Assembly (NCBI GenBank): GCA_963819365.1
Contig: CAWFVY010000005.1
Location: 8,809-72,808 of the forward strand
Source: an uncultured Acidobacteriota bacterium
Lineage (GTDB): Bacteria; Acidobacteriota; Terriglobia; Terriglobales; Acidobacteriaceae
Direction of reading: 5' to 3'
Length of the DNA stretch: 64,000 nucleotides
In this document: positions 2,412 to 29,405 of the stretch, piece by piece
Layout: each line of letters begins with the position of its first letter
Numbering within the stretch: the first letter of the stretch is position 1
Translations under genes and position numbers: made by a program
Notes under the pieces: generated by a model
The model's database searches: none
What the model was told of the DNA's origin: nothing
Seen by the model: the letters and a program-made list of their open reading frames with translations, nothing else

Positions 2412-2442
2412 GTTGTATCCCGGGTCCAAAACTCGGTCAAAT
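2412..2442 (-). promoter_or_regulatory. ICE promoter motif copy A (TTGACC-17-TACAAC), upstream of the primase-ssb operon
   Basis: Minus strand ATTTGACCGAGTTTTGGACCCGGGATACAAC; identical 15-mer at 26603 and 27931. Confidence 0.7.
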
Positions 2443-2506
2443 CTTCGGAATGGGCGAGCAGTACACGCTAGTCAGCATGTCTCCTCGCCCGTTCCGGTTA
2501 AAGGCC

Positions 2507-2689
2507 CTACGCGGCTTTGCTCCTTGGGACGGCGACGATCTTCACGAACTTGGGTGCGCTCATGGAGAAAACTGGCGCCGGGTTGGGGGCCGAGTGGCCG
2601 TGAGTTCTTCCTGGCGCGCACCAGGCGGACGACTGAACCCTGGCGATCGCGCGATTGATCGAGCGGATACGACTTGCGGACAGACGCAT
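2507..2689 (-). CDS. Possible small protein (60 aa)
   Basis: RBS GGAGGAACCGTCATG followed by MRLSASRIRS...PRSKAA. Confidence 0.35.
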   Translation of the reverse strand: MRLSASRIRSINRAIARVQSSAWCAPGRTHGHSAPNPAPVFSMSAPKFVKIVAVPRSKAA

Positions 2690-2744
2690 GACGGTTCCTC
2701 CGTGGATAGGGACGGTTTTGCTTGTTTGGGTGTAGCGAGGTGGG

Positions 2745-3104
2745 CTAGGCGTTGGCCGGCTGGAATTCAGTGAGCAGCAGGCCAGGCTGCTCAACCAGGC
2801 GGAACAGGTCGTACTCGGAGAACGCGCGGTCGAACTTCTCCGAGGTGAACTGGTCTTCGCAACCTTCGAACGAGAGCATGTACCACTGCTCGCGCTGTCG
2901 ATCGAAAACGTAGATCGCTCCTGATTCACTGTTGTCGGGCACCATTTGTAGGAGCAGGACACCTTTGGCTGTCTGGACCCAGCGGGTGGCAATGGCCTCA
3001 CCGAGTTCCAGAAAGGCGGCGACAGTTTGCTCGATTGAGTTGGCGGCACGGTCCCGCCAACTGAACATCTTGTACGCGGACATCTTTCCCAAGCTGGATT
3101 GCAT
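2745..3104 (-). CDS. Hypothetical protein (119 aa)
   Basis: Strong RBS AGAAAGGAGA; globular-looking composition. Confidence 0.7.
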   Translation of the reverse strand: MQSSLGKMSAYKMFSWRDRAANSIEQTVAAFLELGEAIATRWVQTAKGVLLLQMVPDNSESGAIYVFDRQREQWYMLSFEGCEDQFTSEKFDRAFSEYDLFRLVEQPGLLLTEFQPANA

Positions 3105-3152
3105 GGCAATTCTCCTTTCTTCTGAGTTGGGGTTAATGGGATGGATCGCGGG

Positions 3153-3411
3153 TCAGCAGGTCCGGCTCTTCAGTGTGAGGAACCACATTCGAGTAAGCGA
3201 TCCGAGCAGAGCTGCGAACAGCAATGTCACTCCTACCTGCTGAAGCGGGGCGTGGTTGGTAGCTCCATAGAGCGTTCCAGCGTACCTCGCGACGATGATC
3301 GCGTTGAACACGGTCTGCACAAGGCAGATCGCAAGGCGGCGCTGGAAGGGGTTTGAGGGAGAATTCCCTTCCGCCGTTCTGATTGGGGGCGGCAGGGGCG
3401 TAGTGGTGCAT
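3153..3411 (-). CDS. Small membrane protein (apparent frameshift)
   Basis: RBS AAGGAAATCGCCATG at 3411; the C-terminal frame encodes two hydrophobic stretches (LAICLVQTVFNAIIV; VGVTLLFAALLGSL). Confidence 0.4.
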
Positions 3412-3902
3412 GGCGATTTCCTTCCTTTCGTGGCATGGTGGGCCGGTTGTCGTTCTTGGGGTGGGCGCGCAGGGAGGCATTGACGAGCTGGCGCCAAGGG
3501 GGGCGCCTGAGTTTGCCTCGGAGGCTCAGAATGTTTGGGAGTGTGTACTGAGGGCGGGTGCACCCGTTAGCAGTAGGAGTTCCGCCGCTGTGCGTCCTCA
3601 GCTAGCGTTGAGGACTGGGGCCCAACAATCGACCTGACTGGCATCAAATCGCTGGTTGGCCCGATTGAAAATCACTCAATTTCTTTATTCCTTCTCTCCA
3701 ACTTCTTCCCGCCACCTCAACATTGCCATGCAAACAAGGGGATAGTCAGAAAGGAAGTTTTTGAGCGGCCATAACTTAGGGAGTGCCGATTCCGTTCAAT
3801 AACGAGGCAAAAGAGGTCAAAGCAGATGCATTGAAACGTCAATGCGACGTAAATACAACCACAAAGGACAGTCGAAGGAATGCCTTGCCCAGCGCAATGG
3901 AA

Positions 3903-4715
3903 CTACGACACTCTCAAATCGAGAAGTTCGCGGAGCGGCACAATTTCTGAGCTCGCCGTGTTGGTCAGAGTGCGCGTCTCAAGGAGAGAACGGCGGAATG
4001 CTTCGCTCAGTGCAAAGCCGATTCGCTTCCGAGTCGCGCGCAATTCCATGGCAAGCAGATACAGAATGTCGTCGCTTGAGGTCAGGTACAAGACCGTATC
4101 CGTAGCTTTGTCTCTGTTGAGAGCCTCACAAATTGCGTCATAACGGGATGCTGCCTTCGCGCTTCTCTCGTATTCGATCCCGATCGTTCGTGTGCATCCG
4201 TCGACTTCGATCTCCGCGACGGCGTCATAGTCTTTGATCGTTCCGCCGGCGGCAACCAGGTTCCGCGAGGTGATCTCCACGTCACTCTTCCACGACCGAA
4301 GCAAGCCTGATCGGGCAAGAGCCAGATGGATATTGACCAGTTCCAGCGCGTGAGCGACCTTCGACGGGTGGAGAATCTGCTCCGTGTCACTAGGCAACGA
4401 CACCAGGTAGTGACCGCGCGACTCAAGACATTCAAGACCTTGCTGGGTAATTCCATAGACAGGTTTACCCAGAAACCGCTGTCCATTCAATCTTTCGATC
4501 AGGCCAACTTTTTCGAGTCGCGTCACCCGCCAGCGCAACGAGCGAACGATCGCCTCCAGCATCTCGTGGGCAAGCAGGTCGCGAAGCTGATCGAAAGTGA
4601 TCGCGCGCGAGTTCCGCACTTGGAGCAGAACCGGCACATCACATGTGTCGGACAGGGCGATATAGCCCTTGTAATACCTCACGGGAGCGCTCCTTCGCTG
4701 AGTCGAATTCGGCAT
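3903..4715 (-). CDS. Replic_Relax / MOB_C-type relaxase (winged helix + PD-(D/E)xK-like nuclease)
   Basis: N-terminal wHTH (ITFDQLRDL...RVTRLEKVGLIER...VYGITQQG), H-x-L motif (VAHALEL) and D-x-E-x-E motif (DYDAVAEI...IGIEYERSAK); downstream of VirD4. Confidence 0.75.
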   Translation of the reverse strand: MPNSTQRRSAPVRYYKGYIALSDTCDVPVLLQVRNSRAITFDQLRDLLAHEMLEAIVRSLRWRVTRLEKVGLIERLNGQRFLGKPVYGITQQGLECLESRGHYLVSLPSDTEQILHPSKVAHALELVNIHLALARSGLLRSWKSDVEITSRNLVAAGGTIKDYDAVAEIEVDGCTRTIGIEYERSAKAASRYDAICEALNRDKATDTVLYLTSSDDILYLLAMELRATRKRIGFALSEAFRRSLLETRTLTNTASSEIVPLRELLDLRVS

Positions 4716-6635: not shown

Positions 6636-8654
6636 CTACCTCGCCGAGAAACAATCCCGCCGTTCTCCTGCGCCGCTGCTTCCGGTTCTCCGCCTCTTTG
6701 AAGCGGAGATTCACACCGACCTCAGGGTCGAAATAGCTGTGCATCTTCGGATAGAGGGAAGGCTCAAGGCCCTCCACCTGAAACCGCGGAACACGCCGAA
6801 CGTGCAAATGGGAGTGGCGGGTGCCTTCGCGGCTGTCCACCATCAGGATCTCCATCTGGCCGACCGGCAGGTTCTTGATGTGGTCTTCACGCGCACGCGT
6901 CTCCTTGATGTCGCTCTCGCTTCCCGTTCCGGTCTCTGTATATTTGGTGGAAAAGATCCCGGTTCTGCGCACCGACAGGCTGCGGCGCTTGGTGGCAATC
7001 CGGGACGATGCTTTCAAAAACCACTGCGCCGTGTGCTCTTCCGAAACGTTCATAATCATCTTCGTTCCCGGGCGCGGACGACACTTCGTCCGCAAACGCT
7101 TGGCTCACACGCTGCAACTGCGGAATGCTCTGGAACGAAAAGAGGAATGAGACTCGCGCTCCGCGGGCGGTCTGGAGTACCTGGGTAAACCCGGGATAGG
7201 CGAAGGGCGAAAACTCATCCAGGATCACCGAAAGCATCGGTTCGTCGGCATCCCGATCACTCGTCGGCTGTGCGTAACGCTTGCCAACCATCAGCTGGAT
7301 GTTCTGAAGCAGGATCTTTCCCAGGGCTTCGACGGCACGCTGATTACGGTTGGCGTTGAGGGAGACAAACAGAATGAGATCCTTGTTGAGAACGTCGTCG
7401 AGCGTAAGCAGGTCCTGATAGGAGCCGGTAACAATCGACAGTTCGTCCTCCAGGAAACTCAAAAGCTCGTTCAAAAGCCCCTGAATCTTCTCCACCCGCT
7501 CCCTGTCTGCAAGCGATCGCTGAAGCATTTTGACCGACATCTCGAAGTTCAACCGCTTCTGCATGGAGATACCCGGCACTGAGGCCAGGCGTGCCTTCGC
7601 AACTCCGATCTGTTCCTCCAGAACCTTCTCATCGAGCGCCATCACCAGCACGTCGTAGACGTTGAACAGTTTTCCCGTGTACTGGAGTATGCGAACAAGA
7701 TCCGAGAGGTACGCCTCCTGGTGTCCTTTGAAGAAGTCTTCGCGCAGCCCGAAGGACCGGAAAATGAAATTCACGTGTTCCTGGTAAGCATCGTCGAGTG
7801 CATAAAACGGGTTATATCGCGCCGATTCCGCAGGGTGGGTTGGATCGATCACGCGTAGATCTTGCAGGCGGCCGGCAGCCTCGATATGCGGCAGAAGGCG
7901 ATGAAGAAACTCCCTCTCGCCCTTGCCGTCAAAGATGATCATCGGCATTTTGCGCGAGCCGAAGCGCCGCATCACATCCTGCGCGATGATGTTTTCGAGA
8001 AAAGTTGACTTGCCAGAACCCGTGCCGCCCACGATGACTCCGTGCTTCATGCGCACGATGTCGGGCCAGAGCCACGGCTCCTTGTGCACGTTGTATCCGA
8101 GCAAAGTAGCTTCACCTTGATTGGCGGCACGGACTGTTGCCGCATCCTTCGATGCCGGGATAAGGATGGCGGGGTGTGGCCAATTCTCCTCTCTTCTTCG
8201 TCTGCGACCAACCAGTTGTGCGATGAGAAGGCCGCCGCCGAAAAACAGGATGGCGCCGTACAGGAAGATTTCAAGACACTGTTGGTTGCTGAGATGGAGG
8301 CGTGACACAGCAACATACCACGCGAACGCGAGCACGGCGCAGGTGAGCAGACACCAGAACGCCTAGCGACATCTTCCGGTCCTCTCTGGCGCAATGTGGG
8401 CTGATCGTAGTAGGGGCTCATCCGCGCCCTCCCACTGAGAAATACACAAAGACCCCAAGCAGAGCACACAGCAAGACCACGTGAGAATGAGCAGTGGACT
8501 GGGTCTCCAGCGGCCCTTCTCATCGATGGGTTTGAGTTCATCAGAGAAAGATTCGAGGAGGGAGCTCTGCAGATTGGTTTCGGCATCGCTCACGGTAGAT
8601 CTGTCTCAGCGCCTGGCGCACTTCGTCTGGCGAAATGTAGCCCTGCGCGTCCAT
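6625..8654 (-). CDS. virD4: Type IV coupling protein VirD4/TraD-like (several apparent frameshifts)
   Basis: N-terminal TMs, Walker A GGTGSGKST, DGKG motif, Walker B VILDEF, QTARGARV...FQSIPQL; pieces 8363-8654, 6887-8335 and 6625-7095. Confidence 0.88.
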
Positions 8655-8656
8655 GA

Positions 8657-9505
8657 CTAGAGAACCGCCTCGACCTTCAGAGGTCCGTTTTGGTCAGCGC
8701 CGAAGTTCAGCTGATAAATCTGCGGAGGGTTGTCCTGTCGAAGTTCCAATGCTGATTACGCCCGTCGTCTTTTCTCCCGGCGCAAGATCGCGCACTACCT
8801 GACTCGGCCTGCATCACATCGATGCCTGAAACTTGTGTTCGCTTTGAAGGTCGTGAAGGTCCGAGACGTGATCTGATGATTCCTGAGACTCACGAGCGAA
8901 ATCGGCTGTTCGGTCGGGACAGGGGCGCACACATCCGGAGTCGTGACCCGGAACGGAGCCTTGGTCTCGTTGGCTACCGAATAGCGAATATAGATGCGAT
9001 CCTTCGCGCGATAGACCTGTTCTAGATCGACCTCGACGCGCCCCGTGGCGGGTTTTTCCGCGTCATGCACGACGTCTTCGACTCCCATCATTGCCTGTGT
9101 AAGTACCAGCGAAGCGATCTTGCGAATCTCTACATCTGACGGCTCGGCCGACGCCTGCGTGCTGCTATGCGGGTTGAGCGCAGGTTCGGTGCGAACCAGG
9201 ACATCCATGTGAGCGAGTTGGCCCGCCGGATCGAGCTCGTAGCTCAGTTCGCGCGATGCGGTCCAGACAAAGAGATTGGTGGACACGCCCTCCCGGAGAG
9301 GCTTCACAAAAACCTTGTCGTCATGTCGCTCGACCTGAAAGCTGTCTGGATCGGCGATCGCAAGCGTCGTCACGGATTCGCCGAATTCGAGAACCGTCAG
9401 ATGATTGAGTGACGTCTCGATGTGACGGATCTGGCTTTGGCTGGTCGTCTGCGCCCCGGCCGCGATCGCACCGAGAGCAAGAAAAAGGATCGTGATCGTC
9501 TTCAT
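8657..9505 (-). CDS. Secreted conjugal transfer protein, VirB9/TrbG/TraK-like (frameshift near 8800)
   Basis: Signal peptide MKTITILFLALGAIAAGA; LTVLEF...DKVFVKP...TNLFVWT matches the VirB9-like N-domain pattern; the C-terminus continues in another frame to TAG 8657. Confidence 0.6.
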
Positions 9506-9535
9506 AGCGGCCTCCCTGGGCGCGGGGTGAGTCAC

Positions 9536-9581
9536 AAAAAGGAAAAGAGAAGCCGGGGCGCGAGGCCACAGCTTCTCTTTT
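9536..9581 (-). terminator. Intrinsic terminator-like hairpin after the RNA polymerase-like gene
   Basis: Minus strand AAAAGAGAAGC-17 nt-GCTTCTCTTTT followed by TCCTTTTT. Confidence 0.6.
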
Positions 9582-9586
9582 GCCGG

Positions 9587-12168
9587 TTAGGAATGCTCCA
9601 TTGAATTAGGAACACTCGTGTTTTCGAAGACAAGCGAGCGCTTTCCCGCGTACTGGAAGAGAAATACTCTCTTCTCACACTCCGGGCCTTGAGGATTCGC
9701 CATCCGCTCGACCAGAAATGCCCGCTGCTCATCGTCGAACCAGACATAGCCGTTCACAGTCTTCGGAAGTCGCACACGTACCCGCTGACCACCGGTAACC
9801 TCCGCGAAGGCATCGATCACCTCTTGCGGAAACGACTGGAAGAGAACGGCGCCGGAACCCGAGCCACCTGTGACGACACCATTCATCGCCTGCGCCCATG
9901 CCCGACGGTTCTCCTGTTTACCTTGCGCCCAGTAGTGAACGAATAGATGCAGCGAGCTGAACTGATCCCGTGCGTCCTGTTCGTGTTCCCACAGGGCTGC
10001 CTGCGCCTTGTTTCGCGCAAGCACTGCAGACTTTCTTTTCTCCTTGTCCTCGCTCCCGCGCACAACTTCCCACTGCGCTTGAGCGTCCTTGAGTTGCTGT
10101 TTGACTTCGTCCTCGCGCTGGACAATCCGACTTGCGATATCCCCGTAGATCGAATTGATCAACTGGCATTCCTCGAACATCTCCCGAGTAACGGTTTCAC
10201 CCGAAAAGAGTCCTCGGAAGTCTTCGATGGACATCTTCTCTTCGAAACCGTTGCCGGTTTCGTCGGGAAGAAAGCCAACCTCCTTGCGCAGGACGTTATA
10301 GAGCCTCCCAACCTTATCCGTATCCGCGACTTCAAGATGGGACGGCAGGTCCGACACTCTGCGCTCACGCTTGTAGCGGAGCCAGGGCGCCGGCGCTACC
10401 TCCTTCCTGATTTCACTGACAACGGATTCATCGATCTCGACCCTGTGTTTCAGGGAATCGAGTGCGTTCTGCAGTTGCTCGACGAGCTTGTAGGCCAGGT
10501 CTGGCCGTCCCGCCGAAAGGCATGAGGTCTTCAGATCGGTGATCGAGCCGATCCGGTTTCCACGCGCCTTCATGGCAACCGGGCAGGCATTCCACCAGGG
10601 AGACTTGGCTTTCTGATGCTTTGTCTTTTCCTGGTGAAATCTCTCCCCATACGCGATCCTTCCCGCCACGAACTTCGGGAACTGATCGGAGGGCATTACG
10701 CAGATGGTGTCGAAGTCGAAGTCGCCGCCGTTTTTGCTCGCGGTCTTCGAATGAAGGATGTACGTCCCCTCCATGCGAAGCTGCCGATCAAGAAGATAAG
10801 CGACCTGCGATTCGTCAAGGTCGGCTGTTCCGAGCGCCTGTTTGAGCGCTGGAACAAGCTCGGTGTTGGTGAGATGACGAACGGGTAAAAGATCCTCCTG
10901 CATCCGTATTGGATACCGGATGCACAGGCCCTTCTCCGCCGCCAAGGATGTGATCGCGCTGTCTTCAGGTATCCAGTCGGACGCCGAGAGAATCTTTCCT
11001 CGGTGCTCAATCAGGACACCGTCGTCCGCCAGAGCGAACGATGGCAGCTTCAGATCCGCGCTCGTGCAGGCACGAAATGCCCAGCGGGCCAGCTTGCGGT
11101 TCAGTTGGTTGAAGACATAGGGAATCTTGATTGCATTTCCGCTACGGTCCGCCAACAGAACCGCCTCCGCCGGGTCACATCCCTCTGAAGCCGGATCGTC
11201 CTCTCGCTCCAGGGAGTCGGGGTCAAAGCCGACACCATCTTCGATCGTTGTAACCTCGGACTTGCCGATTACCTCGAAAAGAGCCTGGTAGTCACCCTCG
11301 TCCCATGCCTTTCTCATTGCCTTGATTCGTTCAAGCGCCCACAGCTTCAGTTCAAACTGCAGCGCCTCTTCCGAAGCGTGTTCGATCAAGGTGTAGCTTG
11401 ACCCAAACTCCGATTGACGGGAGATCTGTTTGATCCCGAGAATCGCCGGACCCGTGTACATGCGGCCCGATGTGCCCAGTTGAGGGAAGAAATCGCACAC
11501 CTCCCTTCAAGGGCCGGTTTGCAGGCGCTCTCGGGCAAAATGACATCGACCGCGAGCCTGTCGGCCACGCGATCGCTCATTGCCTTTAATGCGCCTTTCG
11601 CCTGCTTCGGTTCGCTTGCGTCAAATGCCAGCCGAAACTGGCAAAAACGATTCGTGCCGATCTTGAGCTTCCGGTAGAGGGATTCACGCGCCCAGCCACG
11701 GCAATCGTTGGTGCCAAGGACATGATCCTTGACCACAGCGATGCGCAGGTCGGGTTCCTCGACCATCAGCTTGCAGTCGGAGACGAGGATCGCAAAGTAC
11801 ACGATCGCCGCCTCGGGCCAATGCTGAAAGCGCTCAGCTATCGGGCCGGCATGCGCCTTGTCGACGAAGTAGAACTTGCCATCCTTCGCCGAACCGCTGG
11901 CGCCCACCAGCTTGTACTCGACCCCGCCGTAATGAAGGCTCGCCATGCGGTTTTCGACCACAGACTGCTCATACGGCGTCAACTCATACGGCACGCTGAC
12001 GCGCGCGACTCGGATGCCAGGATAAAGCTGACCGAGGAGCTTTCCCTCGAGCGTATCCTTCCGTCCGAGCTTGGTTGGCTTGCGGGTCACTTCACCGGAC
12101 GCATCAATCCTCAGTTCAAGAATGAGCTGCTGATCGAGTGCCGCGTTTTGTGTCCTGTTCGCTGTCAT
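9587..12168 (-). CDS. Single-chain two-barrel RNA polymerase-like protein (RdRP/YonO family), ~860 aa, frameshifted near 11490-11520
   Basis: Ordered motifs NDCRG, QFRL...AKGAL, ILPESACK, CIRYP, GGDFDFD, IGSITD and ALDSLK parallel the RdRP/QDE-1 motifs DGxG, QIR..GxKG, L.xSxxK, RxP, GxDxDGD, LGxI and AVDxxK. RBS GTGAGGAG. Confidence 0.8.
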
Positions 12169-12409
12169 GTTCTCCTCACTTGTCTGGCGCTTCGAGACGA
12201 AGTGATTAGAGACTTGGCTGAACGCCGGTCCTCAATCTCTTCGCCTGGCCGCCCGGGTTAGGGGTGGGGTGTTAGCCGAACCAGGCTTCGAGAGTGCAAA
12301 CCGGGTCAGCGGAATTCCTCATCGCGTGAAGCGATAAGGCGTCAAATGAGGCGACATGAGCCGTATTTCAGGTTTGTCTCCTCTTTGAATCCGAGCTGAC
12401 CTTGCGGCC

Positions 12410-15780: not shown

Positions 15781-16633
15781 TTATCGCGCCGTCAGGGCTC
15801 CGGTGATCAAACTGTTGATTCCACCGGTCGCGGCGGTTCTGCGTTTCACAAGAACGTTGTCGTGCGCAATGCGGCCTGCCTCCTGACGCAACTCCGCCGC
15901 AAGCATCTTCTGCATGTACGCCTGGCAGCGGAGATTGGCGACCTGCGCTTGGGCGGTCAGGAACGGATTCGAACCGGGTGTGCTCACCGCAACCTGGTTT
16001 TCCATTTGATTGGCGGTCTGAAGAATGACATCCGCGCCCTGATCGGCGATCAAGGTTGTTTTGAGATTCTCCTGCCCTAGCGCGTCGTCCACGTCCATCA
16101 TCACGCGGTCTTGTGGCGAAGCGGTGTTTAGCTGCGGGATAGCGCCGTAATTCGAAGTGAAGCTCGTCTGCAGATGCGGGAATTTCTGTCGACAGGCGGC
16201 TATGCAGGATGCTTTCGAACTGTTGCGGCCCCGGAGTCACGGCGCTTGTGAACGGCGTGTTGAACACCTGATTCATCTGCCCGCGATAAGTGTTGATCGA
16301 ATTTGCAACGAAGCCTCGGGCCTGGTTGATTGCCGCCAGCGGCGCAACCGTTGTCTGATAGAGCTTCTGCATCTGCTGGGCAATCTGGTTGATGGCTTGA
16401 GAGAGCTGCCGATGTCGTTCTGAATCGAGCTGAAGATCGCGTCGAACACGCTAAGGAATTGCCCTTGAGCGAGCTTGGGCAGGGCAAAGCACGTCTCGAT
16501 CACCAGAACAACAATGAGCACTCTCCTCTTCCAGCGAATCTTGCGTACCCCGCTTTCGGCCGCACCTCGATCGTCCTTATACGGCTCTCCATTCAGAAGT
16601 AGCTTCATCTCGGGTTGGGTATTGTTCAGTCAT
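15781..16633 (-). CDS. VirB5/TrbJ-like secreted protein, copy 1 (frameshifts)
   Basis: Paralogous to 14869-15770 (PLAAINQAR vs PLTAINQAK; MMMDVDDA vs MTDMTDA; ITGALTAR vs INGALTNR). Confidence 0.5.
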
Positions 16634-19279
16634 TGGCTCATCGCCTCCTGCATCTCTCCGGAGAGCTCGACCGGCAAAGGCGCCAGATCCGCCAGCCCCC
16701 TCGGATATTGGGCGGCAAGTTCTTCGTAGGCCTGGATCAACGGCAGTGACTGATGCTGGCGCAGCCACCATTTGCGAAATGCTCGTTCCCGTGCGTATGT
16801 CGTAGTGATCCAGTAGTCCACGGGGCTGGGAACAATCCGGATTGCGTGCGTCGACTCCGCCTTCTCCCCAATCGCAATCAGGAACTCGGCGCTATGACCC
16901 TTCTTCGGGTGAGCGAAGGTCTTGATCTGATTCAGCGCCGTCTCGTTCAAGTGAACATGCTCCCGCAGAGCAGTCATATCGCCAGGCTGTTTGCCGATGA
17001 TCTTTGTGGTCGCATTCTTCACGATTCCGGCGCCATGCTCATTGGGTTTGTCGGGTGTGCCGACAAAATCTTCGGGAGTCTGGCTGATCCCCCAGACGCT
17101 TGCGTTGCGTTTGCGGGCTGTGCGGAAGAGTTGCACGACGACGCCTGCGAGGATCGGCGACTCCAGCAGCGCCCAGCATTCGTCGAGCAGGACGATGCTT
17201 GGCTGACCGGTCATCCCCGATGCGCGGTACGTGGCCGTGTGAGCGATCAAGAGACTCATGGCCCGTTCGAGGCGCGGATCGTCTTTCAATTTCTCGACAT
17301 TGAAGTAGAGCCAAGGATTGTTCAGTTGGACCGTGGTCGGCCGGTCAAAGAGCCGCGCGTAAGGTCCCTCGTCAACCCAAGCCCGCAGCTTCGTCGAGGC
17401 CATCTGCGCCATCGCGTTGATCTTCTGATTGCGATCCCGATCCTGCCAGTGGGCCAGTTCCGCGGCCAGATCTCCGAAGAGCGGAATCGGGTTCGAGGTC
17501 TTCGCGCTGCACCTCTTGTACGTTGAGGCGATGGCTTCGAGCAGAACGCTGTCGAGCAGGTCGATGTCGAGGTCGGGCGGCGTATTCTCGCCCAGCATGT
17601 GCCGCGTGAGGTTCTTAAGAAACGAGATCTGGTCGTTGGAAGGCTGGTCTTCTCCTCTGGGCAAGTCCCAGGGATTGATCGTCTGGTCGCTGTCGAGCGA
17701 CATCTCGATCATCTCTCCGCCCATCAGTTCCACTAATGGCTGATAGGAATCACCGCGCTCGAGGATGGAGATGAGCGGGTTCGCGCGCGCTGCCATCAGC
17801 AGCATCTGCTGAGCGGCAAGAGTTTTGCCGCCTCCGCTTTTCGCCATCAGCAGGCCGTTCGCATCGGAAAGATCCGGATCGAACATCGAGAACGGAATGA
17901 GCTGGCGATAGGGCGTCTCAAAGAGAATGAGCGGGCTCCTCCGTGTCCCGGTCCACGGCATCTCTATAGGGACAAGATCGGCGGCATTGGAGGTAAGCAT
18001 GTCCTGGTCGCGTTTGTCGGCCTCAGCCATGCCCGGTAACGTCCCCAGAAAGATCCGCCGCTTGGCGATCGTCTCAGCCACAGCCTTCGCGCCATTCATG
18101 TGAGTGAAGGCGTTCAGAACCTCTTGAGTCCGATTGGCGAGTTCGCGCTCGGATCGTTCGAGATCGTGCAAGGTGATTGCCGGTTGCGAGGTGCGCACCA
18201 CGACGGAAAGACTGAGCTTGGCCGTCTTGAGAGAGGAGGAGATGATGTCTCGCTGCACCTGGATGAGCTGCGCCTGAGCTACCTCGGCCTCGGGATTCGA
18301 TTTGAAGTTTCCGTTGGCGTCCTTCTGCGCGGCTGTCATTTTCTGGAGGCGCTTTTTGTAGCTCTTGAGGACCTTCACCTGGTCTGGGATCACGACCTGC
18401 CCACTGACGACAACCGGGAAGCCAAGTGTCGAGAAGTTCTGCAGCATCCCCGGAAAAGTCGCATCGGGAAGTTCCTTCAGGCTGACAACGGCGTAGAGAT
18501 ACCCATCGATGTTCAGGTAGGTCTCGGTTTCGTTGAGGATGCTCGCCTCGACCGCCTGGGACCTCGCGCTGCGATACTCAATCATCTCCTCCGGTGGCAC
18601 ATACGGCCGCCGGTCGCGCCGGATTGGGTGCTGCGCATGCTTCAACTCCTCGAAGAGTTCTTGTGTCGAGAGTCTCCGGGGCCCGAGGTTGGCCGCCTCC
18701 ATCGACCCCTCGATGCCCCGGAGGATGGATTCGAACTCGGCCAGATAGGTCTCGTGCTCCTTCCGCGCACGCTGGATGGCCTTCTTCTGGCTCAGAGTGA
18801 ATCCACCAAGACTGCGATTCTGTTGAGTGGAGTGGTAAAGCTTCGCGTGAATGCGCGGGTCCCAGATCAAGTACACATGCAGCCGATTCTCGAAGAAGAA
18901 GCCGCTGTTTTCCTTCTGTCGCCACATCCGAAGCCGGTGCGCATCGAGGGCCATTACTTCCGACTGATCAGTCCGCTGTTCGTGGATGTAGCTGTTCGAG
19001 GAGATCTCCGAGATGCTCAGAAATCTCGTAGCGGAACTGAACGCGCATGCTGACATCGGGAACACTGCGAAAGAGCGCCTCAAGCATCGACTTGTTCTGG
19101 TTGCGATCTCCATCCGTCGCAAAGTACGCGAGGATCCCCCGCAACTCGTAACCGGCGACAAACGCCCCATTGGTGCGCACCATGATGTTGTCCCCAAGGG
19201 GGAGATCGCGCAGAGGCAGCAACTCGCATACCGCCGGTACTTTGAGCCTTCTATCGTGTTCTGCTTGGGTCACCGGCAT
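16630..19279 (-). CDS. virB4: VirB4/TrbE-like conjugation ATPase (frameshift near 19000)
   Basis: Walker A AKSGGGKT, Walker B LLDECW, RTARKRNASVWGISQ; RBS AGGGAG before ATG 19279. Confidence 0.92.
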
Positions 19280-21452: not shown

Positions 21453-21484
21453 AGAATGAGTGCGGAACCGAAATTCGGTCAAAT
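21453..21484 (-). promoter_or_regulatory. ICE promoter motif copy B, upstream of the pilin-virB4 operon
   Basis: ATTTGACCGAATTTCGGTTCCGCACTCATTCT (TTGACC-18-CATTCT). Confidence 0.6.
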
Positions 21485-22221: not shown

Positions 22222-22589
22222 CTCTATTCGGGAACGACGATTACCCAAGTCGCACTTTGGGTCATTGGGAAGGATCTTTACCCAATCCGGAATTGGGTAA
22301 TCGGGAACAACAGATTCCTCAATTTGCACACTGGGTAATCGGGCATGTTTCTTGCCCAATCGCGAAGTGGGTCAACGGGACCGATCTTTGCTCAATCGGA
22401 ATTGGGTCATCGGGAACAAAAATGACTCATTCTGCAGACTGGGTCAATGGGACCGTTGTTTGCTCAATGGCGAAGTGGGTCAACGGGACCGATCTTTGCC
22501 CAACTTCACATTGGGGCATCGGGAGCAAAGATTGCCCAACTGCGTACTGGGTCATGCGGACCGACCTTGACCCGAACGGGAAGTGCGTC
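22222..22589. repeat. Degenerate ~36-bp tandem array (9 full units + partial) with ~108-bp higher-order period
   Basis: TGGG(T/G) starts at 22258, 22294, 22332, 22368, 22403, 22440, 22476, 22512, 22548; each unit TGGGTCA.YGGGA...T(G/A)C(C/T)CAA. Confidence 0.9.
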
Positions 22590-22680
22590 CAGGGGAAGGG
22601 CGCATTACAGGCACATTTCTTGGAGACGCGACGCAAGAACGATGAGCCGCAAGGCAACTCGCCAGTTGAATATGATGGCC

Positions 22681-22713
22681 AAACACAAGAACGCCCCGGC
22701 ACTGGGCCAGGGC
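22681..22713 (-). terminator. Possible terminator after virB10
   Basis: GCCCTGGC-CCAGT-GCCGGGGC followed by GTTCTTGTGTTT. Confidence 0.4.
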
Positions 22714-22744
22714 GAAGAAGAGAGTCGTGCGGCGAGTGGGCAAT

Positions 22745-24007
22745 CTACTGAACCGTTGGGCTGACCTTGTGAAGCTCGGAAGGCGTTTGTTCGTGTTTGG
22801 TAAACACGACGTAGATCTTCGTGTCGGCCGGAACGGAGACTACCACACGGCTGTTGGCATTGAGGCTCATCACCTCCGAGTCTCCCGCCGTGCCGATATT
22901 CTCGGCAAGCCGCTCACGAAGCATGTCGTCCTCAGAAAACGCAGCGCTGGTGTTGTTCCCGGCAACTTCTGCAAGCACCGAGCCGAGACCCGATGCCGCC
23001 CGCACCAGAAAGTTCTTACCCGTGTTCTTCCCGTACACGCTTCCTTTGATGGGTCCGAGGTCCAGCCCAGTTCCGACAGCGTCGATCTTCTCCCGGGCTC
23101 CATCGAGAAGTTCGATCTCGTCGAACTTCACGCTCACCAGTCCGCTTCGGTCGGCCTGCTGGAGCTGACCGTACACGCGTGCGCCCGCAGGGACGATAAT
23201 TCTGTCGCCGATCGCGTAGGTGTATTCGACTACGGCTACGACAGGGGCCAGCACAGCGCTCGATATCTGCGTCTCAAGCTTCGCCTGAATGCGCGTACCC
23301 GGTGTCAGTTCCAAGCGAGGAGTACCATCCTCGCCGGTATTGAGCTTCTGTGCAGCCAACGCTGGGCTTTGCGCCACACTTCGCACAAAGACCAGAGACG
23401 GCTCCTTGAGGGTGTTCTGTTGCGCTTGCGGCGTTTCCGCGTTGGGAGTTCCGCCATAGGGCGCCGGATCTTCCCACTTCTGTTGCGTGTCTGCGAAAGA
23501 GGGTACATTTCCCAGGGAGCTGGCAACAGCAGGCTTGCCGGCAAACGGCTTCAAACCTGAGCTATTGTCCAGTGTTCGTGTCCGACGAATATCCCCTGGA
23601 CCGAGCTGCCCACTGCTGTTATCCGGCGCCGGCGTGTGCTCGGTATCCATGAGGGGTGTCACACTCCCTTTGGGCTTCGGCGACTGCTCCTGTTTGGCCT
23701 GCTGCGAGGGCTGCTTAACTGCCGCTAGTTTCTTCGGAGACTTGCCAACGATCGCCGCGAAAACAAAGAAGAGCACCGCAACTGCAAGTCCGCCTCCGAG
23801 GAGCATCAGTTTGCCCTTGCTTATTCCTTCAGCTCCCTTGACGGCAGTTCGCGTTGCAAACCGGGTGACGGGTTCCGCTTTCTCCGCGCCATCGATAGGC
23901 TCGGGCGCGCGAATCCGTCCTTGCGAAACCGCCGGCTCTGACGATTCTGCGACAGGAGTAGTGTTCATGCTCCCGTTTCCATTCCTGTTGTTCTCATTGG
24001 CGTTCAT
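22745..24007 (-). CDS. virB10: VirB10/TrbI-like protein
   Basis: Single TM, Pro-rich linker, C-terminal LTPGTRIQAKLETQISS...IVPAGARVYG...VPADTKIYVVF. Confidence 0.82.
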   Translation of the reverse strand: MNANENNRNGNGSMNTTPVAESSEPAVSQGRIRAPEPIDGAEKAEPVTRFATRTAVKGAEGISKGKLMLLGGGLAVAVLFFVFAAIVGKSPKKLAAVKQPSQQAKQEQSPKPKGSVTPLMDTEHTPAPDNSSGQLGPGDIRRTRTLDNSSGLKPFAGKPAVASSLGNVPSFADTQQKWEDPAPYGGTPNAETPQAQQNTLKEPSLVFVRSVAQSPALAAQKLNTGEDGTPRLELTPGTRIQAKLETQISSAVLAPVVAVVEYTYAIGDRIIVPAGARVYGQLQQADRSGLVSVKFDEIELLDGAREKIDAVGTGLDLGPIKGSVYGKNTGKNFLVRAASGLGSVLAEVAGNNTSAAFSEDDMLRERLAENIGTAGDSEVMSLNANSRVVVSVPADTKIYVVFTKHEQTPSELHKVSPTVQ

Positions 24008-24024
24008 AACCTTGGGGCTCCCTT

Positions 24025-24981
24025 CTACTTGCCATCGCCGGATATGGGTGGAGTGAACGGAAGATGGATCAAGATCGGATGATCCACCTGATCCGCTTGG
24101 GCAATCTGCAGAAATAGCTTTTCGGTCGATTCCTTGAAGTTCGGCCGATCAAAGACGACCACGCCATCGGCGCGTTCTCCCGGCTCAAGGCGCGTTGTAC
24201 TCAACCTGTAGTCCCGGATTTCCAGTTGGTCCGAGATAATGCCTTTCCCCTCCTTCTTTTTCTTCTTGGTGGCCTTGCGACCTGTGATCTGGATTTGCGG
24301 AGGGACAATCTCGATAGGCTCATTCGAGCTGTTCAGGATGGAGTACGAGATCATGGTCTGATTGCTCAACTGCCGCATATCGCCAATCGATGTCTCGATT
24401 TGCTTGTCCTCCCATTTCGTCCACTTCGGAGCGTTCACGCTCTCCTGCAGCTTGAACACCTCGTCGAGGCTCGACAGCGGCGCCGAACGCAAACCGGCGG
24501 TCCCGCCACTCACGCCCTGCGCGGGTTCCTTAGTGGGCGCGCTTCGCGTCGCCAGGGATTCAGGATCGGCGGAAATGAGGAAGCTCCGCGTCGTTCTGTA
24601 TTCGATCAGAAAATCAACCGGCTGCGTTGGATTCGTGACACTCGCGCCATCGCTGACCAGTTCCAGCGTGACATGCTGTCCTGATTTAGTTGCGATGAGG
24701 AGGTTCGACTGCGCAGCCTCTTTAACGATCGGTTTGACGTAGACATACTCCGGCTCGCCTTCGTTATGTTCTGCCTTGAACTCACCCGGGCTGCCGAGGA
24801 TTACGGATGTGATCTCCTCCGGCATGCGGATGGTCGATTCAAACTCTGGCCTGAGATGAAGGACCGTGACTTCTCTCGGATTGATCGTGACAGTGGCGAC
24901 ACGTGCTCCAACTGGTGTGTCGCTCGCGCTGAGACGAAGCGGAAGCAGGACTGCGACAGGGATGAGCCAGCGAAGTTTCAT
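24025..24981 (-). CDS. VirB9/TrbG-like secreted protein
   Basis: Signal peptide; VTVLHLRPEFESTIRMPEEITSVILG...VYVKP...SNLLIAT; adjacent to virB10. Confidence 0.65.
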   Translation of the reverse strand: MKLRWLIPVAVLLPLRLSASDTPVGARVATVTINPREVTVLHLRPEFESTIRMPEEITSVILGSPGEFKAEHNEGEPEYVYVKPIVKEAAQSNLLIATKSGQHVTLELVSDGASVTNPTQPVDFLIEYRTTRSFLISADPESLATRSAPTKEPAQGVSGGTAGLRSAPLSSLDEVFKLQESVNAPKWTKWEDKQIETSIGDMRQLSNQTMISYSILNSSNEPIEIVPPQIQITGRKATKKKKKEGKGIISDQLEIRDYRLSTTRLEPGERADGVVVFDRPNFKESTEKLFLQIAQADQVDHPILIHLPFTPPISGDGK

Positions 24982-25459
24982 GGGGTTGACCTCCTCGACG
25001 GCCGAGCGGCCGGATACCTGCGAAGCATGTACTGCCTTCGCACCGCTTGCACGTAGGCGACAACTTCCGGATTACGATAATCCAGTTGTTCCCGTGCAAT
25101 GTTGCGGTCGCCGGCGTAATAGGCAGCGGCAACCAGACGCAGATCTCCGTGGAATTCCCACATCAATGCCGTGACGTAGCGGGTGCCTGCGGCAATGTTT
25201 TGTTCCACATCAAAGGGCTCGAAAGGCGCCAAATCGCTTCGCCGTCGCCGGCATGAGCTGCATCAGCCCCATCGCTCCCTTGGCGGAGACCGCTCGCGGG
25301 TTCCAACGCGATTCGACGTCGATGAATGCGGCGATCAACTCCGGCGGCACACGATAGTGCGCCGCATACTGCCTTACGATCCGCGCTGCCGGTACAGGAT
25401 CCGTCTTGCCCAACGGCAAGATTGGGAAATACCAGCAGTATGAGTACGCACCGAATCAT
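24978..25459 (-). CDS. virB1: VirB1-like lytic transglycosylase (frameshifts)
   Basis: IDVESRWNPRAVSAKGAMGLMQLMP and QNIAAGTRY...AAAYYAG SLT motifs. Confidence 0.85.
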
Positions 25460-26562
25460 GATGCTGATCCTCCTCGGAGCGCGAGACTCTGCGCGAACCT
25501 GGCTCCGTCGTCGAGCAAGCTCTTGAACCCCTCCCGCAACAGGAGGTGGCGACGGTCCTTCTCGGTCTTCGCCAAGAACGGAAGCAGCACGTCGCGGTGC
25601 TCCGCTGTTACGTGGTCGGTCCCGAGGAGTTGCAGTGCATTGGCGAAGTCGATCATCTCCGAGACCGATGGCGGCTTTTCCAGTGAGTAGTTGCGGAAGG
25701 AGAGCGCTATTCCGGCCATCTCGCGATGGAAGCTCTCATCGGCCTTCGGGGTGCGGCTGGCAATGATCTCGGCTTCGCGCTCCGGCGTCGGATGCTCGAC
25801 CCGCACATAGAGGCTTCGCCTCCGGATTGGGTCGCCCAGCCTGCGTTCCTCGTTGCTGGTGAGCACGACGAACGGGAATGCTCTTTGCTGCGACCGTGCC
25901 GAACTCAGGAATCGAGAGCTGCCAGGCGGAAAGGATTTCTAACAGCATCGCTTCGAACCCATCGTCTACCTTGTCCAACTCGTCAATAAGCAGCACACAC
26001 GGCCGATCGCATTCGAGTGCACGCATCAGTGGACCAGGCCGAAAGAAGTCCCGCCCCTTGAGGTTCGCCTGAACGGTCTGCCAGTTTTCGTGCTCGCCTT
26101 TTGAAAACTCCATGTAGAGACGCTGCAGGCTCTCGTCGAAGCGACCGATGGCCTTGTCCTCGGTTACACCGCGATAGCACTGCAGCCGCTCGACATGCGT
26201 GCCGGCAGCAGCGGCGACAGAGATGGCAAATTGGGTCTTGCCGCTGCCCGCGGGCCCTTCGAGCAGCAGCGGCTTTTGGAGCTTGGCGGCGAGAAAGACC
26301 ACCTGGGTCATCACCGGGTCGATGAAGTAGCCCGTGGCCGCGAGTTTGGTCCCGAGATCGTGCGATTGAATCAAACATCTGCTTTGTCCTCGCGCTTCTA
26401 CTTGAATTCCAGCCGCAGTTTGCTCTCCGGTCGGCTTTCCGACCCAAAGGCGGATCGTTTGGTGGGGGAAACCACTTGCGCCCAGACATTCGCGAGCGAT
26501 CGTGACTCCCAACTCAGCAAGGAGGACCAAAAGCCTGCGTTCCAAAATGTCTTCCGCTTCAC
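25456..26562 (-). CDS. MoxR-family AAA+ ATPase (frameshifts)
   Basis: LLLEGPAGSGKT, ERLQCY, GPLMRAL, LLIDELDK, VLTSNEERRLGDPIRRRSLY. Confidence 0.85.
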
Positions 26563-26617
26563 CTGAACCTCCTCCAATGCGGAGACAGCATGAGACGGCA
26601 TCAAAACTCGGTCAAAT
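26560..26617 (-). promoter_or_regulatory. ICE promoter motif copy C plus leader/RBS, upstream of the moxR-virB1-virB9-virB10 operon
   Basis: ATTTGACCGAGTTTT...CTCATGCTG..TCCGCATTGGAGGAGG..GTG (TTGACC-17-CATGCT). Confidence 0.7.
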
Positions 26618-26656
26618 TTCCATTTGAGGCTGTGGATTTACTCCGTCCGATTCAGT

Positions 26657-26932
26657 TCACGATTCCGGCCGGGCGGAAAGCCCAGAAACGGTAACGGCTA
26701 AGCCGTTCGGGCAAGCCGGTTGCGCCCTGCCTGGACTGACCTCGGTCTTACGGCCATTCCCGCCAGTCGGCAGGGGATCCACCCATTGCTCTATCGCTTC
26801 AGGACGGTAGCGCACAAGCGGCCCCACTTTCACGTACTGGGGTCCTTCTCCGCGAAGCCGCCACCGTCTCAAGCACGCCAAGCTAACTTGGATTTTTTCT
26901 GAAACCTGGATTTCATTCAGGAATGATTCCAT
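26657..26932 (-). CDS. AlpA/excisionase-like helix-turn-helix regulator
   Basis: FLNEIQVSEKIQVSLACLRRWRLRGEGPQYVKVGPLVRYR (HTH_17/AlpA pattern). Confidence 0.85.
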   Translation of the reverse strand: MESFLNEIQVSEKIQVSLACLRRWRLRGEGPQYVKVGPLVRYRPEAIEQWVDPLPTGGNGRKTEVSPGRAQPACPNGLAVTVSGLSARPES

Positions 26933-27887
26933 AATGGGAGAGCCAGCGTAATGGTATACAGCGTTTCGGATGAGAAGATTGACGCCTGGTTTGCAGCCTT
27001 CAACCGGCAGAATTGCTGGAACTTGCTAGCAACGAAAGGCGCAAATCGAGATGAGATTCAGCGGTTGCAAAATACAACATAGAGAGTTCTGGGCGTACTA
27101 CCGCTGACTCGTCCCTACCCGAAACCGGCTTCCCAGGGCTGTCCCCCAGGGAACGGCGAATGTTCGTCAAAGGGACGAGTAGCCCACGACTCGCCCGTGA
27201 TGATGCGAGTTGCGATGTATCGTGCCACTATGCAGCTAATGACGGTCACAAACTTGCGTGTTGAGTCCATCACCGGACCCGCCTGCTATCGCCGGGAGAA
27301 CGGATTCTCCGCGCTGATTGCCTACGTGAAATGCGATGATACCGAAATTTCGAGGCAACTCCGCAATGCCGCAGACGCAGGCAATGGTTTGGACTTGCAA
27401 TAGGGGCACTGCAGGGACATGGGGCTGCCGGGAAGAGCTTCAGGAACAGGTGGTTTAGGCATGGGCCGAGTCTAATCCTATTGCGCACGCTCTTCACGCG
27501 TTTTGCGTAAACGGGTTTTCAGGTGAGCGCGAAAATCCGAAACGCGGCGAAAATCCTTTCCCCCTTCCGTCCAATTCCGCTGAAGTGTGCGCGAAACGCC
27601 CCCGGCGAATTGCGCAAGCGGCCGGAGCGCGGTCCCGGGGTTGCCAGGGCCAAAACGGCGGGCACTGTCCGGCGGGCGTCCCGCCCGAGAGTGACCGCCG
27701 ACTCGTCCCTAATCCGTGTCGGCGCTGCTGCCTGTGGGCGAACGTTCGTCAAAGCGACGAGTGGTCCGCTATTCGGCCAGAACCCCGAGGAGCTTCGAGT
27801 TTGGAACGATTTCATCTGCCGTGCGTCTGTTCATTTGGAGGTTCACATGACCAAGTGCTTCCTGGCGTTCGCGCTCTCAGTTCCGAC

Positions 27888-27945
27888 CACGGAGCCTCCT
27901 CCAATGCGGAACCAGCATGAGGTGATTTGAAAAACTCGGTCAAAT
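27888..27945 (-). promoter_or_regulatory. ICE promoter motif copy D plus leader/RBS (near-duplicate of 26560-26617), overlapping the integrase stop
   Basis: ATTTGACCGAGTTTTTCAAATCACCTCATGCTGGTTCCGCATTGGAGGAGGCTCCGTG. Confidence 0.65.
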
Positions 27946-29043
27946 CGGGACGTGGCAATCAGGCCCGGCAACCTCCCCCTGTTGTGGGGTTTTGCTACTC
28001 AGCCGATTCCTGCGGACCTCCAGTTTCTCAACAGCGTCTTCGACATCGGAATGGGCTACGATCGCATATCTTTCGAAGACACTCCGCGTCTTCCAGCCGC
28101 CGATCTTCATGATCACGCCCTCGGCGATGCCGGCTCGCCGATAGTTCCTTGCTGCTGTCCGGCGCAGGTCGTGAAAGAGCAAATTGGGAACCCCCGCGGC
28201 TTTGCACGCCTTTTCCCACGTACCTCGAAAATCTTTCACGGGTTTCCCATTTGGCCACGTGAGCACGTAAGCATCCGGTGCCTTGCCTTGGACGCATAGA
28301 GTCAGGAGTGCGTGAATGATCTTTGTCATCTTGACCTCTCGGCCCTCTTTGTTCTTCGTGGTGCCAGGATGGAGTCGAATGGTCCAGTTCTCGAGCTCAA
28401 TTTGATTGACTCTCAGCTTCTTTAGTTCGCTAATGCGCCATCCATAGGTAGCTCCGAGTTCTACAACCGTTTGGAACCAACGCTCCGAGCAAGACTCCAA
28501 CAGCTTTTCGAATTGAGCATCTTCCAGAAAGCCTTGACGGATATTGCTCTCAGCGAGCCGCGGGAATGCGGGAACAAAAATGATCTTCGGAGGTGTTGCC
28601 CTCCGCCCAAGACTGAACATCCTCTTAAACGCCGCGAGTTCCCGATTGATGGTTCCGTTTGCGGCTCCCTCGACTTGGCGTCTGTCGACGTATGCGTTCA
28701 GCAGGCTGCTCGTGACCTGCACCGCACGAAGAGATCCGAAAAATGGCCGGATATGAAGACGCCATCGCGCCTCGCAGTCGTCCAGCGAAGCCTTACCATT
28801 AATGCGGTAGTCGCGGAGGAAGTCCTCGGCAAGCTCCGTGACGCGAGTGCGCTCTACCGTGGGTCCGATGAATTTTCCCGTCATCACTTCCGCCACGCGG
28901 AGATTCAATGCTCGTGTTGCCTTGCGCTTGTCGGACGTTCCTGTCGACTCCCGAAAGGGCTCCCCATTTCGATAGAACTTAATCCACCAGACACTACTGT
29001 CCTTCTGCCGATAGATTCTCCCGGTGCCACGTGGGCGCCTCAT
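27940..29043 (-). CDS. int: Tyrosine recombinase/integrase
   Basis: TYGWRISE (R), TTKNKEGR (K), FHDLRRT (HxxR), GGWKTRSVFERY (catalytic Y); N-terminal arm-binding domain GTGRIYR...WWIKFY. Confidence 0.96.
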   Translation of the reverse strand: MRRPRGTGRIYRQKDSSVWWIKFYRNGEPFRESTGTSDKRKATRALNLRVAEVMTGKFIGPTVERTRVTELAEDFLRDYRINGKASLDDCEARWRLHIRPFFGSLRAVQVTSSLLNAYVDRRQVEGAANGTINRELAAFKRMFSLGRRATPPKIIFVPAFPRLAESNIRQGFLEDAQFEKLLESCSERWFQTVVELGATYGWRISELKKLRVNQIELENWTIRLHPGTTKNKEGREVKMTKIIHALLTLCVQGKAPDAYVLTWPNGKPVKDFRGTWEKACKAAGVPNLLFHDLRRTAARNYRRAGIAEGVIMKIGGWKTRSVFERYAIVAHSDVEDAVEKLEVRRNRLSSKTPQQGEVAGPDCHVPI

Positions 29044-29321
29044 TCTACCCTCCGCGATCCGTTCCGGGTGTGGGTTGTGACCGCTGCTACCGAGAAGCCA
29101 ATATTCGGTGAATAGTCGTCGGGGATTGAGCGCTTGTGGTTTTCAACATAGCTGTCAAGATCCCGAATATCGAGGAGGAAGGGGCCTCCCTCATGATCCT
29201 GCACAACCGGAAACGCGCCTTCTTGAATCAGGCGCCTCAGCTTCCAGTCGCTCATGGAGAGATATGCGGCCGCCTCTTTGGTGCGGATGAGGCGGCGGTG
29301 TAGTGTGGCTGTCGTCGTCAT
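29040..29321 (-). CDS. xis: Excisionase (HTH_17)
   Basis: LIRTKEAAAYLSMSDWKLRRLIQEGAFP...DIRDLDSYVE; stop overlaps the int start. Confidence 0.85.
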   Translation of the reverse strand: MTTTATLHRRLIRTKEAAAYLSMSDWKLRRLIQEGAFPVVQDHEGGPFLLDIRDLDSYVENHKRSIPDDYSPNIGFSVAAVTTHTRNGSRRVE

Positions 29322-29374
29322 AGATGATTCCTCGTCATGAGTTCTCACGTCCGCTCCCGACATGGGGCGAACGT

Positions 29375-29405
29375 ATCGTGGAGTCAAACGCTGACTCGGT
29401 CAAAT
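29375..29405 (-). promoter_or_regulatory. ICE promoter motif copy E, upstream of xis-int
   Basis: ATTTGACCGAGTCAGCGTTTGACTCCACGAT (TTGACC-17-CACGAT). Confidence 0.55.

Follow-up and report, generated by a model that had tools for sequence, protein, structure and literature searches.

Here, we analysed a stretch of 64,000 nucleotides (the window) spanning positions 8,809 to 72,808 of contig CAWFVY010000005.1 (C5:8809-72808) in the 38-contig, 5.73-Mb assembly of an uncultured bacterium; the titles of related records place the host in the Acidobacteriota, family Acidobacteriaceae. The window carries an integrative conjugative element (ICE) of about 31 kb, in which five copies of a short box, ATTTGACCGAR, stand before the transcription units for excision, mating-pore formation and DNA processing. 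We found that the box is specific to the element, is kept at orthologous positions in related ICEs and is followed by a second block in the -35/-10 geometry of the host's own promoters. Our favoured reading, to which we give a probability of about 0.6, is that these sites are an ICE-specific promoter family, an excision/transfer regulon read by the host RNA polymerase with its primary sigma factor (sigma-A) together with a conserved ICE-encoded factor. To judge from the distribution of the sites, the genes for excision and those for transfer are probably activated jointly.

A search of the window for ATTTGACCGAR returned five exact matches, every one on the minus strand, while dinucleotide-preserving shuffles gave a mean of 0.09 matches and none of 100 shuffles reached five. 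When two mismatches were allowed, 36 matches were obtained against 28 expected; the extra ones are at chance level, indicating that the five exact copies form a sharp class. In an unbiased word count over the element, ATTTGACCGA was the top repeated 10-mer of the ICE and no other repeated motif appeared. The whole assembly contains 11 exact copies, five within the ~31-kb ICE and six in the remaining 5.7 Mb, the number that shuffles predict. Five of these six are scattered; the sixth, at C5:6989, falls within a response-regulator coding sequence 1.8 kb beyond the left edge of the window, has no -10-like block, and was set aside as a chance match. We also scanned both strands of the whole genome with a weight matrix trained on the sites of related elements alone, the window's own sites being excluded. 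Three of the window's ICE sites took ranks 1 to 3 (scores 38.7, 31.5 and 25.4; next best 21.4), and the other two scored lower because the matrix has a fixed spacing and their spacers are 18 nt long. A first-pass annotation, made from the letters of the window, had described the motif before five ICE units and had not noticed it in the host half; the five minus-strand copies are real, with coordinates that were one base off at the low end only, and the restriction to the ICE holds genome-wide, copies elsewhere being at chance level, with which the matrix ranks agree.

The five sites are given below with the units that they head; TTGACC is the -35 hexamer in all five.
29375-29405, minus strand: P_xis, heading xis-int; box ATTTGACCGAG at 29395-29405, -35 TTGACC at 29398-29403, spacer 17 nt, -10-like CACGAT at 29375-29380.
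27914-27945, minus strand: box copy 4, preceding the region that follows int; box at 27935-27945, overlapping the int stop codon, spacer 18 nt, -10-like CATGCT at 27914-27919.
26587-26617, minus strand: P_mox, heading a small open reading frame (ORF) and the genes for a MoxR-like AAA+ protein, an SLT-domain protein, a CagX-like and a VirB10-like protein; box at 26607-26617, spacer 17 nt, -10-like CATGCT at 26587-26592.
21453-21484, minus strand: P_pil, heading a pilin-like ORF and the same-strand genes after it, including VirB4, a polymerase-like gene, the type IV coupling protein (T4CP) and a MobC-like gene, an operon of about 19 kb; box at 21474-21484, spacer 18 nt, -10-like CATTCT at 21453-21458.
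2412-2442, minus strand: P_prim, heading the AEP primase gene, two unknown ORFs and ssb; box at 2432-2442, spacer 17 nt, -10-like TACAAC at 2412-2417.

The downstream hexamers named in the first-pass annotation (TACAAC, CATTCT, CATGCT, CATGCT and CACGAT, at spacers of 17, 18, 17, 18 and 17 nt in that order) were as it had described them, and its assignment of genes to the five boxes agrees with our ORF map. Box copy 4 is a duplicate of P_mox (26571-26617) that includes the leader, the Shine-Dalgarno sequence and the GTG start (CTCATGCTG..TCCGCATTGGAGGAGG). In the ICE family, three different xis/int layouts occur, all joined at the P_mox-type promoter, which together with the duplication suggests an exchange of modules by recombination at the conserved box. 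Between int and the following helix-turn-helix (HTH) gene, a bipartite element occurs twice about 590 bp apart (27100-27196 and 27694-27778), each copy with an internal inverted repeat ACTCGTCCCT...AGGGACGAGT, in a region without convincing ORFs. The 18-nt spacers at 21453-21484 and 27914-27945 are the only two among the family's 52 CAT[TG]CT-type sites, the other 50 having 17 nt; taken with the frameshifted polymerase-like gene described below, they suggest that the assembly contains indel errors or that the element is decaying.

We then compared seven syntenic elements of the same genus, in which VirB4 identity to that of the window runs from 92% down to 53%. In these elements, the box was present upstream of the pilin and MoxR operons as well as of the primase gene. 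The primase promoter, from about -40 to +5, is retained even where primase identity has dropped to 57% and the adjoining upstream DNA can no longer be aligned; likewise, the box upstream of the primase gene persists in elements at 53% VirB4 identity, where the flanking non-coding DNA is not alignable. A scan of species-representative genomes gave 259 VirB4 relatives, and the best 80 of these loci (1.43 Mb) were examined, all from Acidobacteriaceae and with cultured strains included. Candidate carriers in culture with an intact element are Telmatobacter bradus DSM 23630, Acidicapsa dinghuensis 4GSKX, Tunturiibacter psychrotolerans X4BP1 and Acidobacteria bacterium AB60. The 80 loci hold 156 box copies in the gene orientation and 24 in the opposite one (at most one mismatch). 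Their positions are fixed, lying ahead of the pilin operon, immediately ahead of the MoxR operon, and before the primase operon and xis-int. Many loci have a back-to-back box copy 40-130 bp away on the other strand, heading xis-int. The position of the P_mox box is kept in nearly all relatives, the P_pil box lies about 2.3-2.5 kb upstream of VirB4 with a conserved CTCGACACGGATG after it, and the orthologue of P_xis in one relative (L026) retains both the box and CACGAT. The TTTGACCGAR core is nearly invariant, the orthologous exceptions being single changes such as TTGACCAAG, TTGACGGAA and TTGACTGAA. These comparisons give strong support to a family-wide co-regulated set made up of the excision/integration genes, both mating-pore operons and the DNA-processing operon. 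The first-pass annotation had read the motif as the promoter of a coordinated regulon; the sites heading the element's transcription units are indeed promoter-like, and the regulon appears well supported because conservation of the box at orthologous positions across a large ICE family is what a regulon predicts.

The anatomy of the promoter was read from 147 non-redundant sites, with conservation scored at columns outside those used for site selection. Downstream of the core, positions 12-14 are T-rich (73%, 76% and 61% T), and no conservation was found upstream of motif position 1. A second block occupies positions 26-31, with C or T (61%/27%), A (93%), T (57%), any base, C (56%) and T (78%), and its spacer from TTGACC is 17 nt in 132 of the sites. 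An A and a T four bases apart, at 17 nt from TTGAC, are the signature of promoters for the primary sigma factor, sigma-70 reading the A at -11 and the T at -7. Host promoters are in agreement: TTGACN-16..18-NANNNT occurs in 6 of 53 regions upstream of host tRNA genes (0.28 in shuffles), with TTGACC in four of these, a 17-nt spacer in five and a -10 starting with T in four. The two-block geometry of the ICE sites is thus that of host tRNA promoters, which fits the host primary sigma factor. Unlike the ICE sites, host promoters carry no GAR-TTT 3′ of the hexamer. The first -10 base also differs: at intergenic host sites of the same form it is T in 38% and C in 20% of cases (T in 8.5% inside ORFs), whereas at ICE sites C predominates, so that the earlier remark on -10 hexamers starting with C holds across the family. 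The ICE-specific features are therefore the invariant extension TTTGACCGAR(TTT) and the C in place of T at the first -10 base. Set against the sigma-70 consensus, the sites have a -35 close to TTGACA and, for the most part, the A2 and T6 of the -10 at 16-18 nt, and mostly lack T1 and closeness to TATAAT.

In the reading that we favour, the five boxes would all represent a single element-specific promoter, repeated ahead of each functional module of the ICE, namely excision/integration, two mating-pore operons and the DNA-processing/primase operon, and a single promoter type could then switch these modules on jointly. The host sigma-A RNA polymerase would most likely initiate about 7 nt downstream of the second block, with predicted starts near 29368, 27907, 26580, 21446 and 2405, because the geometry TTGACC-N17-(C/T)A(T)n(C)T is that of the host primary sigma factor. 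A conserved ICE-encoded factor would dock on the extension (A)TTTGACCGAR(TTT) and decide whether these sub-optimal promoters fire. Promoter activity, the reading polymerase and the existence and sign of this factor are what we infer from the sites; the factor is called for because the invariant extension and the weakened first -10 base exceed what sigma-A needs. It is probably encoded by the ICE and conserved across subtypes, since a host regulator should have host targets and none were found above chance. Every ICE gene, the polymerase-like gene included, lies downstream of a box-type promoter, and the host polymerase must therefore be able to start at least one box promoter. In favour of host sigma-A, the primase promoter of the distant relative L094 (ATTTGACAAAG-N14-TAGGTA, that is ATTTGACA-17-TAGGTA) retains the -35 and -10 while the extension has degraded to the point of loss. 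Other distant polymerase homologues were tried for co-variation of enzyme and box; their contigs were too short or interrupted by insertion sequences, leaving L094 as the only informative case.

Several observations weigh against this reading. An RNA polymerase-like gene is present on the ICE itself, and the phage relatives of its product have promoter motifs of their own (PMC10770324). The primase class (TACAAC) has no T at the last -10 position, with C or A instead, and all five sites escaped a generic scan for E. coli-type sigma-70 promoters on account of their weak -10 hexamers. Pfam and NCBIfam scans of the ICE ORFs returned only excisionase-type HTH proteins, which differ by subtype, and no candidate for the factor. 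Moreover, the site counts are drawn from kin elements and are not independent observations.

We also asked which proteins of the element might read the box. Six-frame searches with Sigma70_r2 and Sigma70_r4 (E<=1) found no sigma-70-family gene in the ICE, the nearest lying about 6.8 kb outside, and on this search an element-encoded sigma factor, of the extracytoplasmic function type or any other, was rejected as the reader. The first-pass annotation had put forward the HTH protein encoded at 26657, which proved a poor candidate: its homologues occur in 17 of the 80 loci, always just after one integrase type and at the place of an excisionase, and a protein so confined to one subtype is unlikely to be the universal reader or master regulator of an invariant box. 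This protein is probably an excisionase-type factor. The family has at least three xis/int architectures, whose HTH proteins are mutually unrecognisable. The promoter class that precedes the homologues of this 91-aa protein carries, besides the box, an inverted second copy at exactly +32 (TTGACCGAGA-N19-TCTCGGYCA) that brackets the -10 and has no -10 of its own (L014:2192, L018:2105, L043:2270, L059:2105 and L051:4235); by its layout this promoter looks autoregulated. Many pilin promoters contain the dyad GACCGA-RTT-TCGGTC. A protein other than a sigma factor probably recognises TGACCGAG, because the inverted copy at +32 stands without a -10. A tandem array of 36-bp and 108-bp units at 22222-22589 has a -35-like TTGACCCA on the minus strand in each unit. 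As a sink for the reader of the box, this array was rejected: it is found only in the closest relatives (e.g., L014) and is absent from L054, L057, L079 and L092.

The polymerase-like gene was examined separately. Two ORFs of the window at 9587-12168 on the minus strand correspond to a single 859-aa ORF in relatives (e.g., L054:16804-19383), the window's gene being split by two 1-nt shifts near 11490-11520 that could be assembly errors or decay. The 859-aa protein has no Pfam match and no sequence match in the PDB. Its relatives number 551 among 50%-identity cluster representatives, and in an alignment of 26 diverse members G-G-D-F-D-F-D, R417-x-P419 and K191/K195 are invariant, the signature residues of two-barrel polymerases (listed in PMC2919709). 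The AlphaFold model (pLDDT 86, pTM 0.83) was matched by Foldseek to gp64 of phage P32 (8f72) and gp62 of P74 (8f5m), both at E 2e-8 and probability 1.0, and to gp96 of P23-45 (8h2m) at E 9e-6. The modelled protein thus matches a single-subunit, two-barrel RNA polymerase of the double-psi beta-barrel fold, as in Thermus phages, and the ICE-encoded RNA polymerase surmised in the first-pass annotation is real as a predicted fold. The gene is present in every intact related ICE, loci without it being truncated or internally deleted elements only; across 401 genomes sampled evenly from the phylum, 7 carry it, all in this family. Among the papers searched, there was no report of a two-barrel polymerase on a conjugative element and none describing this ICE family. 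Elsewhere in the same genome, C24:52506-53339 holds a second, partial copy of the gene (profile positions 166-438), probably a remnant of another element. Between a 100-aa ORF and the polymerase-like gene lies a non-coding leader of about 220 nt (12169-12400, minus strand), whose conservation across the ICE family far exceeds that of other intergenic DNA. The leader contains an invariant hairpin CCTTATCGC-(variable loop)-GCGATGAGG, and the further pairings GCCTGG/CCAGGC and CCCGG/CCGGG may form a pseudoknot. Rfam has no match to this stretch, which could act as an RNA leader or as a site in single-strand DNA.

Among the other explanations, one gives the reading of the box to this enzyme: the box would be the promoter, or part of the promoter, of the ICE's own two-barrel RNA polymerase, acting alone or in a dual mode. 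We regard this as possible, though unlikely. In its detailed form, the 859-aa enzyme would read TTTGACCGAR directly or through a small ICE factor, the host polymerase would provide only a first basal round, and the conserved CA at motif positions 26-27 could be the start site instead of -12/-11. The enzyme's gene is core to every intact related ICE with its signature residues invariant, the modelled fold matches phage polymerases that each have a dedicated conserved promoter motif (PMC10770324), and the box does not vary between subtypes, a constancy that its reader must share and that the HTH proteins lack. That the ICE has no second repeated motif and that the first -10 base departs from host usage point the same way. 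However, an exact host -35 consensus at the host-optimal 17 nt from the A...T block would hardly be expected by chance of an unrelated enzyme, and the polymerase gene itself lies inside a box-headed operon, so that its first expression cannot be started by the enzyme. Two frameshifts interrupt the gene in the window, yet all five boxes are intact, and both the activity and the promoter specificity of the 859-aa protein are predicted only. Presence or absence of the gene was discarded as a way to relate enzyme and box, every locus without the gene being a truncated or internally deleted element. Carried further, such an account would make the box the first promoter of a two-barrel RNA polymerase encoded by a conjugative element, with a rifampicin-insensitive excision/transfer programme and weak sigma-A promoters that bootstrap the enzyme, a proposal that we hold to be doubtful.

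Less probable still, the extension might be an operator and nothing more, an ICE or host repressor on TGACCGAG over the -35 keeping ordinary sigma-A promoters shut until induction, with neither an activator nor a special polymerase involved. The overlap of box and -35, the inverted second copy at +32 in one promoter class, the dyad in many pilin promoters and the large inverted repeats formed by the back-to-back promoter pairs are all consistent with repression. Against this, Pfam and NCBIfam scans revealed no XRE/cI-type or other repressor gene in this ICE, a host repressor should have targets in a genome that has none above chance, and repression alone leaves the systematically weakened -10 unexplained. 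Were the boxes read by an alternative sigma factor of the host, activation of the ICE would be coupled to a host stress response; here, the C at the first -10 base and the C-rich stretch before it loosely resemble heat-shock-type -10 regions, in a genome that codes for many sigma-70-family proteins. Even so, we consider this very improbable: the A-to-T distance in the -10 is 4, as for the primary sigma factor, and not 3 as in CCCCATnT, for which reason the heat-shock-type reading was dropped, and a host regulon should leave boxes before host genes, where none exceed chance. The host sigma-A polymerase acting with a conserved ICE factor remains our preferred reading.

In the element that carries these sites, every long ORF between about 29.4 kb and base 1 of the window is on the minus strand. 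The gene order from ~29.4 kb down is xis (an excisionase-type HTH protein), the tyrosine integrase, the second HTH_17 protein, a MoxR-like AAA+ ATPase, an SLT-domain protein, a CagX-like, a VirB10/TrbI-like and pilin-like proteins, VirB4, a VirB8-like and a VirB6-like protein, a long protein without a Pfam match, a second CagX-like protein, the coupling protein, a weak MobC-like protein, the AEP primase and SSB. The located features, all on the minus strand, are as follows.
29040-29321 (ATG at 29321): xis, excisionase-family HTH_17 protein; Pfam HTH_17, and TIGR01764 excisionase above cut-off.
27940-29043: tyrosine integrase (int); Pfam Phage_integrase, E 1.8e-17.
26657-26932: HTH_17 protein (Pfam) of 91 aa.
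26398-26562: small ORF at the head of the P_mox unit.
25736-26545: MoxR-like AAA+.
22745-24007: VirB10-like gene.
22692-22714: terminator-like hairpin 3′ of the VirB10-like gene, closing the P_mox unit.
ATG at 21401: pilin-like ORF.
16630-19197: VirB4.
9587-12168: polymerase-like gene.
6887-8335: T4CP.
1417-2382 (ATG at 2382): AEP primase.
1-462: ssb.

The G+C content is 57-58% in the ICE and 60-63% in the flanking DNA. The SLT lytic-transglycosylase domain (VirB1-like) belongs to an 84-aa ORF at 24978-25232, and a 270-aa ORF at 3903-4715 weakly matches the MobC-family "replication-relaxation" profile; no canonical relaxase was recognised among the proteins of the element. No att repeats were found at the ICE ends, and the left end may lie beyond the start of the contig. 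Left of ssb, C5:1-8800 is low in G+C (47-57%) and codes for Crp-like and response-regulator proteins; this DNA may be ICE cargo. An Rfam search over the ICE gave no matches.

To our knowledge, genetic tools are almost lacking for the Acidobacteriaceae, abundant soil bacteria, and conjugative systems have not been described in them. The box defines the regulatory logic of an ICE family that is widespread in this group, as the 259 VirB4 relatives in species-representative genomes, cultured strains among them, attest. The five promoters, for which starts are predicted, and the invariant core of 10 nt offer precise sites for testing, and they make it possible to ask what a polymerase-like gene on a conjugative element transcribes. 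Should the ICE polymerase prove to be the reader, a new transcription system would be known outside phages; should it be host sigma-A with an ICE factor, the box would offer a ready-made inducible promoter set for Acidobacteria.

Known systems share parts of this arrangement. In T4 middle promoters, a MotA box near -30 and a sigma-70 -10 are read by the host polymerase with an element-encoded factor, and AsiA remodels sigma. The MotA box replaces the -35, whereas the ICE box keeps a consensus -35; general Pfam scans of the ICE, beyond which no search was made, showed no MotA/AsiA-like genes. The sites also resemble the loading sites of Q-type and AlpA antiterminators, short asymmetric sites at a fixed register in a sigma-70 promoter that a small HTH protein of a mobile element recognises; the ICE, for its part, has long operons (~19 kb from P_pil) and codes for HTH_17/AlpA-like proteins. 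However, the AlpA element, with GGGACG at -25 to -20, lies between the -35 and -10 and has no overlap with the -35 (PMC9371919), the HTH_17 proteins of the ICE family are not conserved between subtypes, and the ICE sites showed no sigma-dependent pause element.

Like Thermus phage P23-45 (gp96, gp64) and SPbeta (YonO), the ICE combines its own two-barrel polymerase, by its model a structural relative of gp64/gp62, with an element-specific motif. In P23-45, each phage polymerase has a conserved promoter motif of its own before many transcription units (PMC10770324), and the promoter sequence of YonO is still undefined (PMC5467207). These phage motifs are unrelated to sigma-70, whereas the ICE box has the -35/-10 geometry of the host. 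The closest functional analogue is found in the SetCD/AcaCD regulons of SXT/R391 ICEs and IncA/C plasmids, where a single box that overlaps the -35 stands ahead of the xis/int, mob and tra operons, the -10 elements are poor and all modules come on together (PMC4542580). Their promoters have no recognisable -35, which is replaced by a FlhDC-like activator, while the ICE box contains the consensus TTGACC, and no Pfam or NCBIfam match to a FlhD/FlhC-like activator was obtained on the scanned ICE ORFs. The ICE box is also short (10-14 bp) and asymmetric, and its host belongs to another phylum, the Acidobacteriota. As in the SetCD/AcaCD regulons, the same box stands before the excision, mobilisation and mating-pore operons and is kept among relatives.

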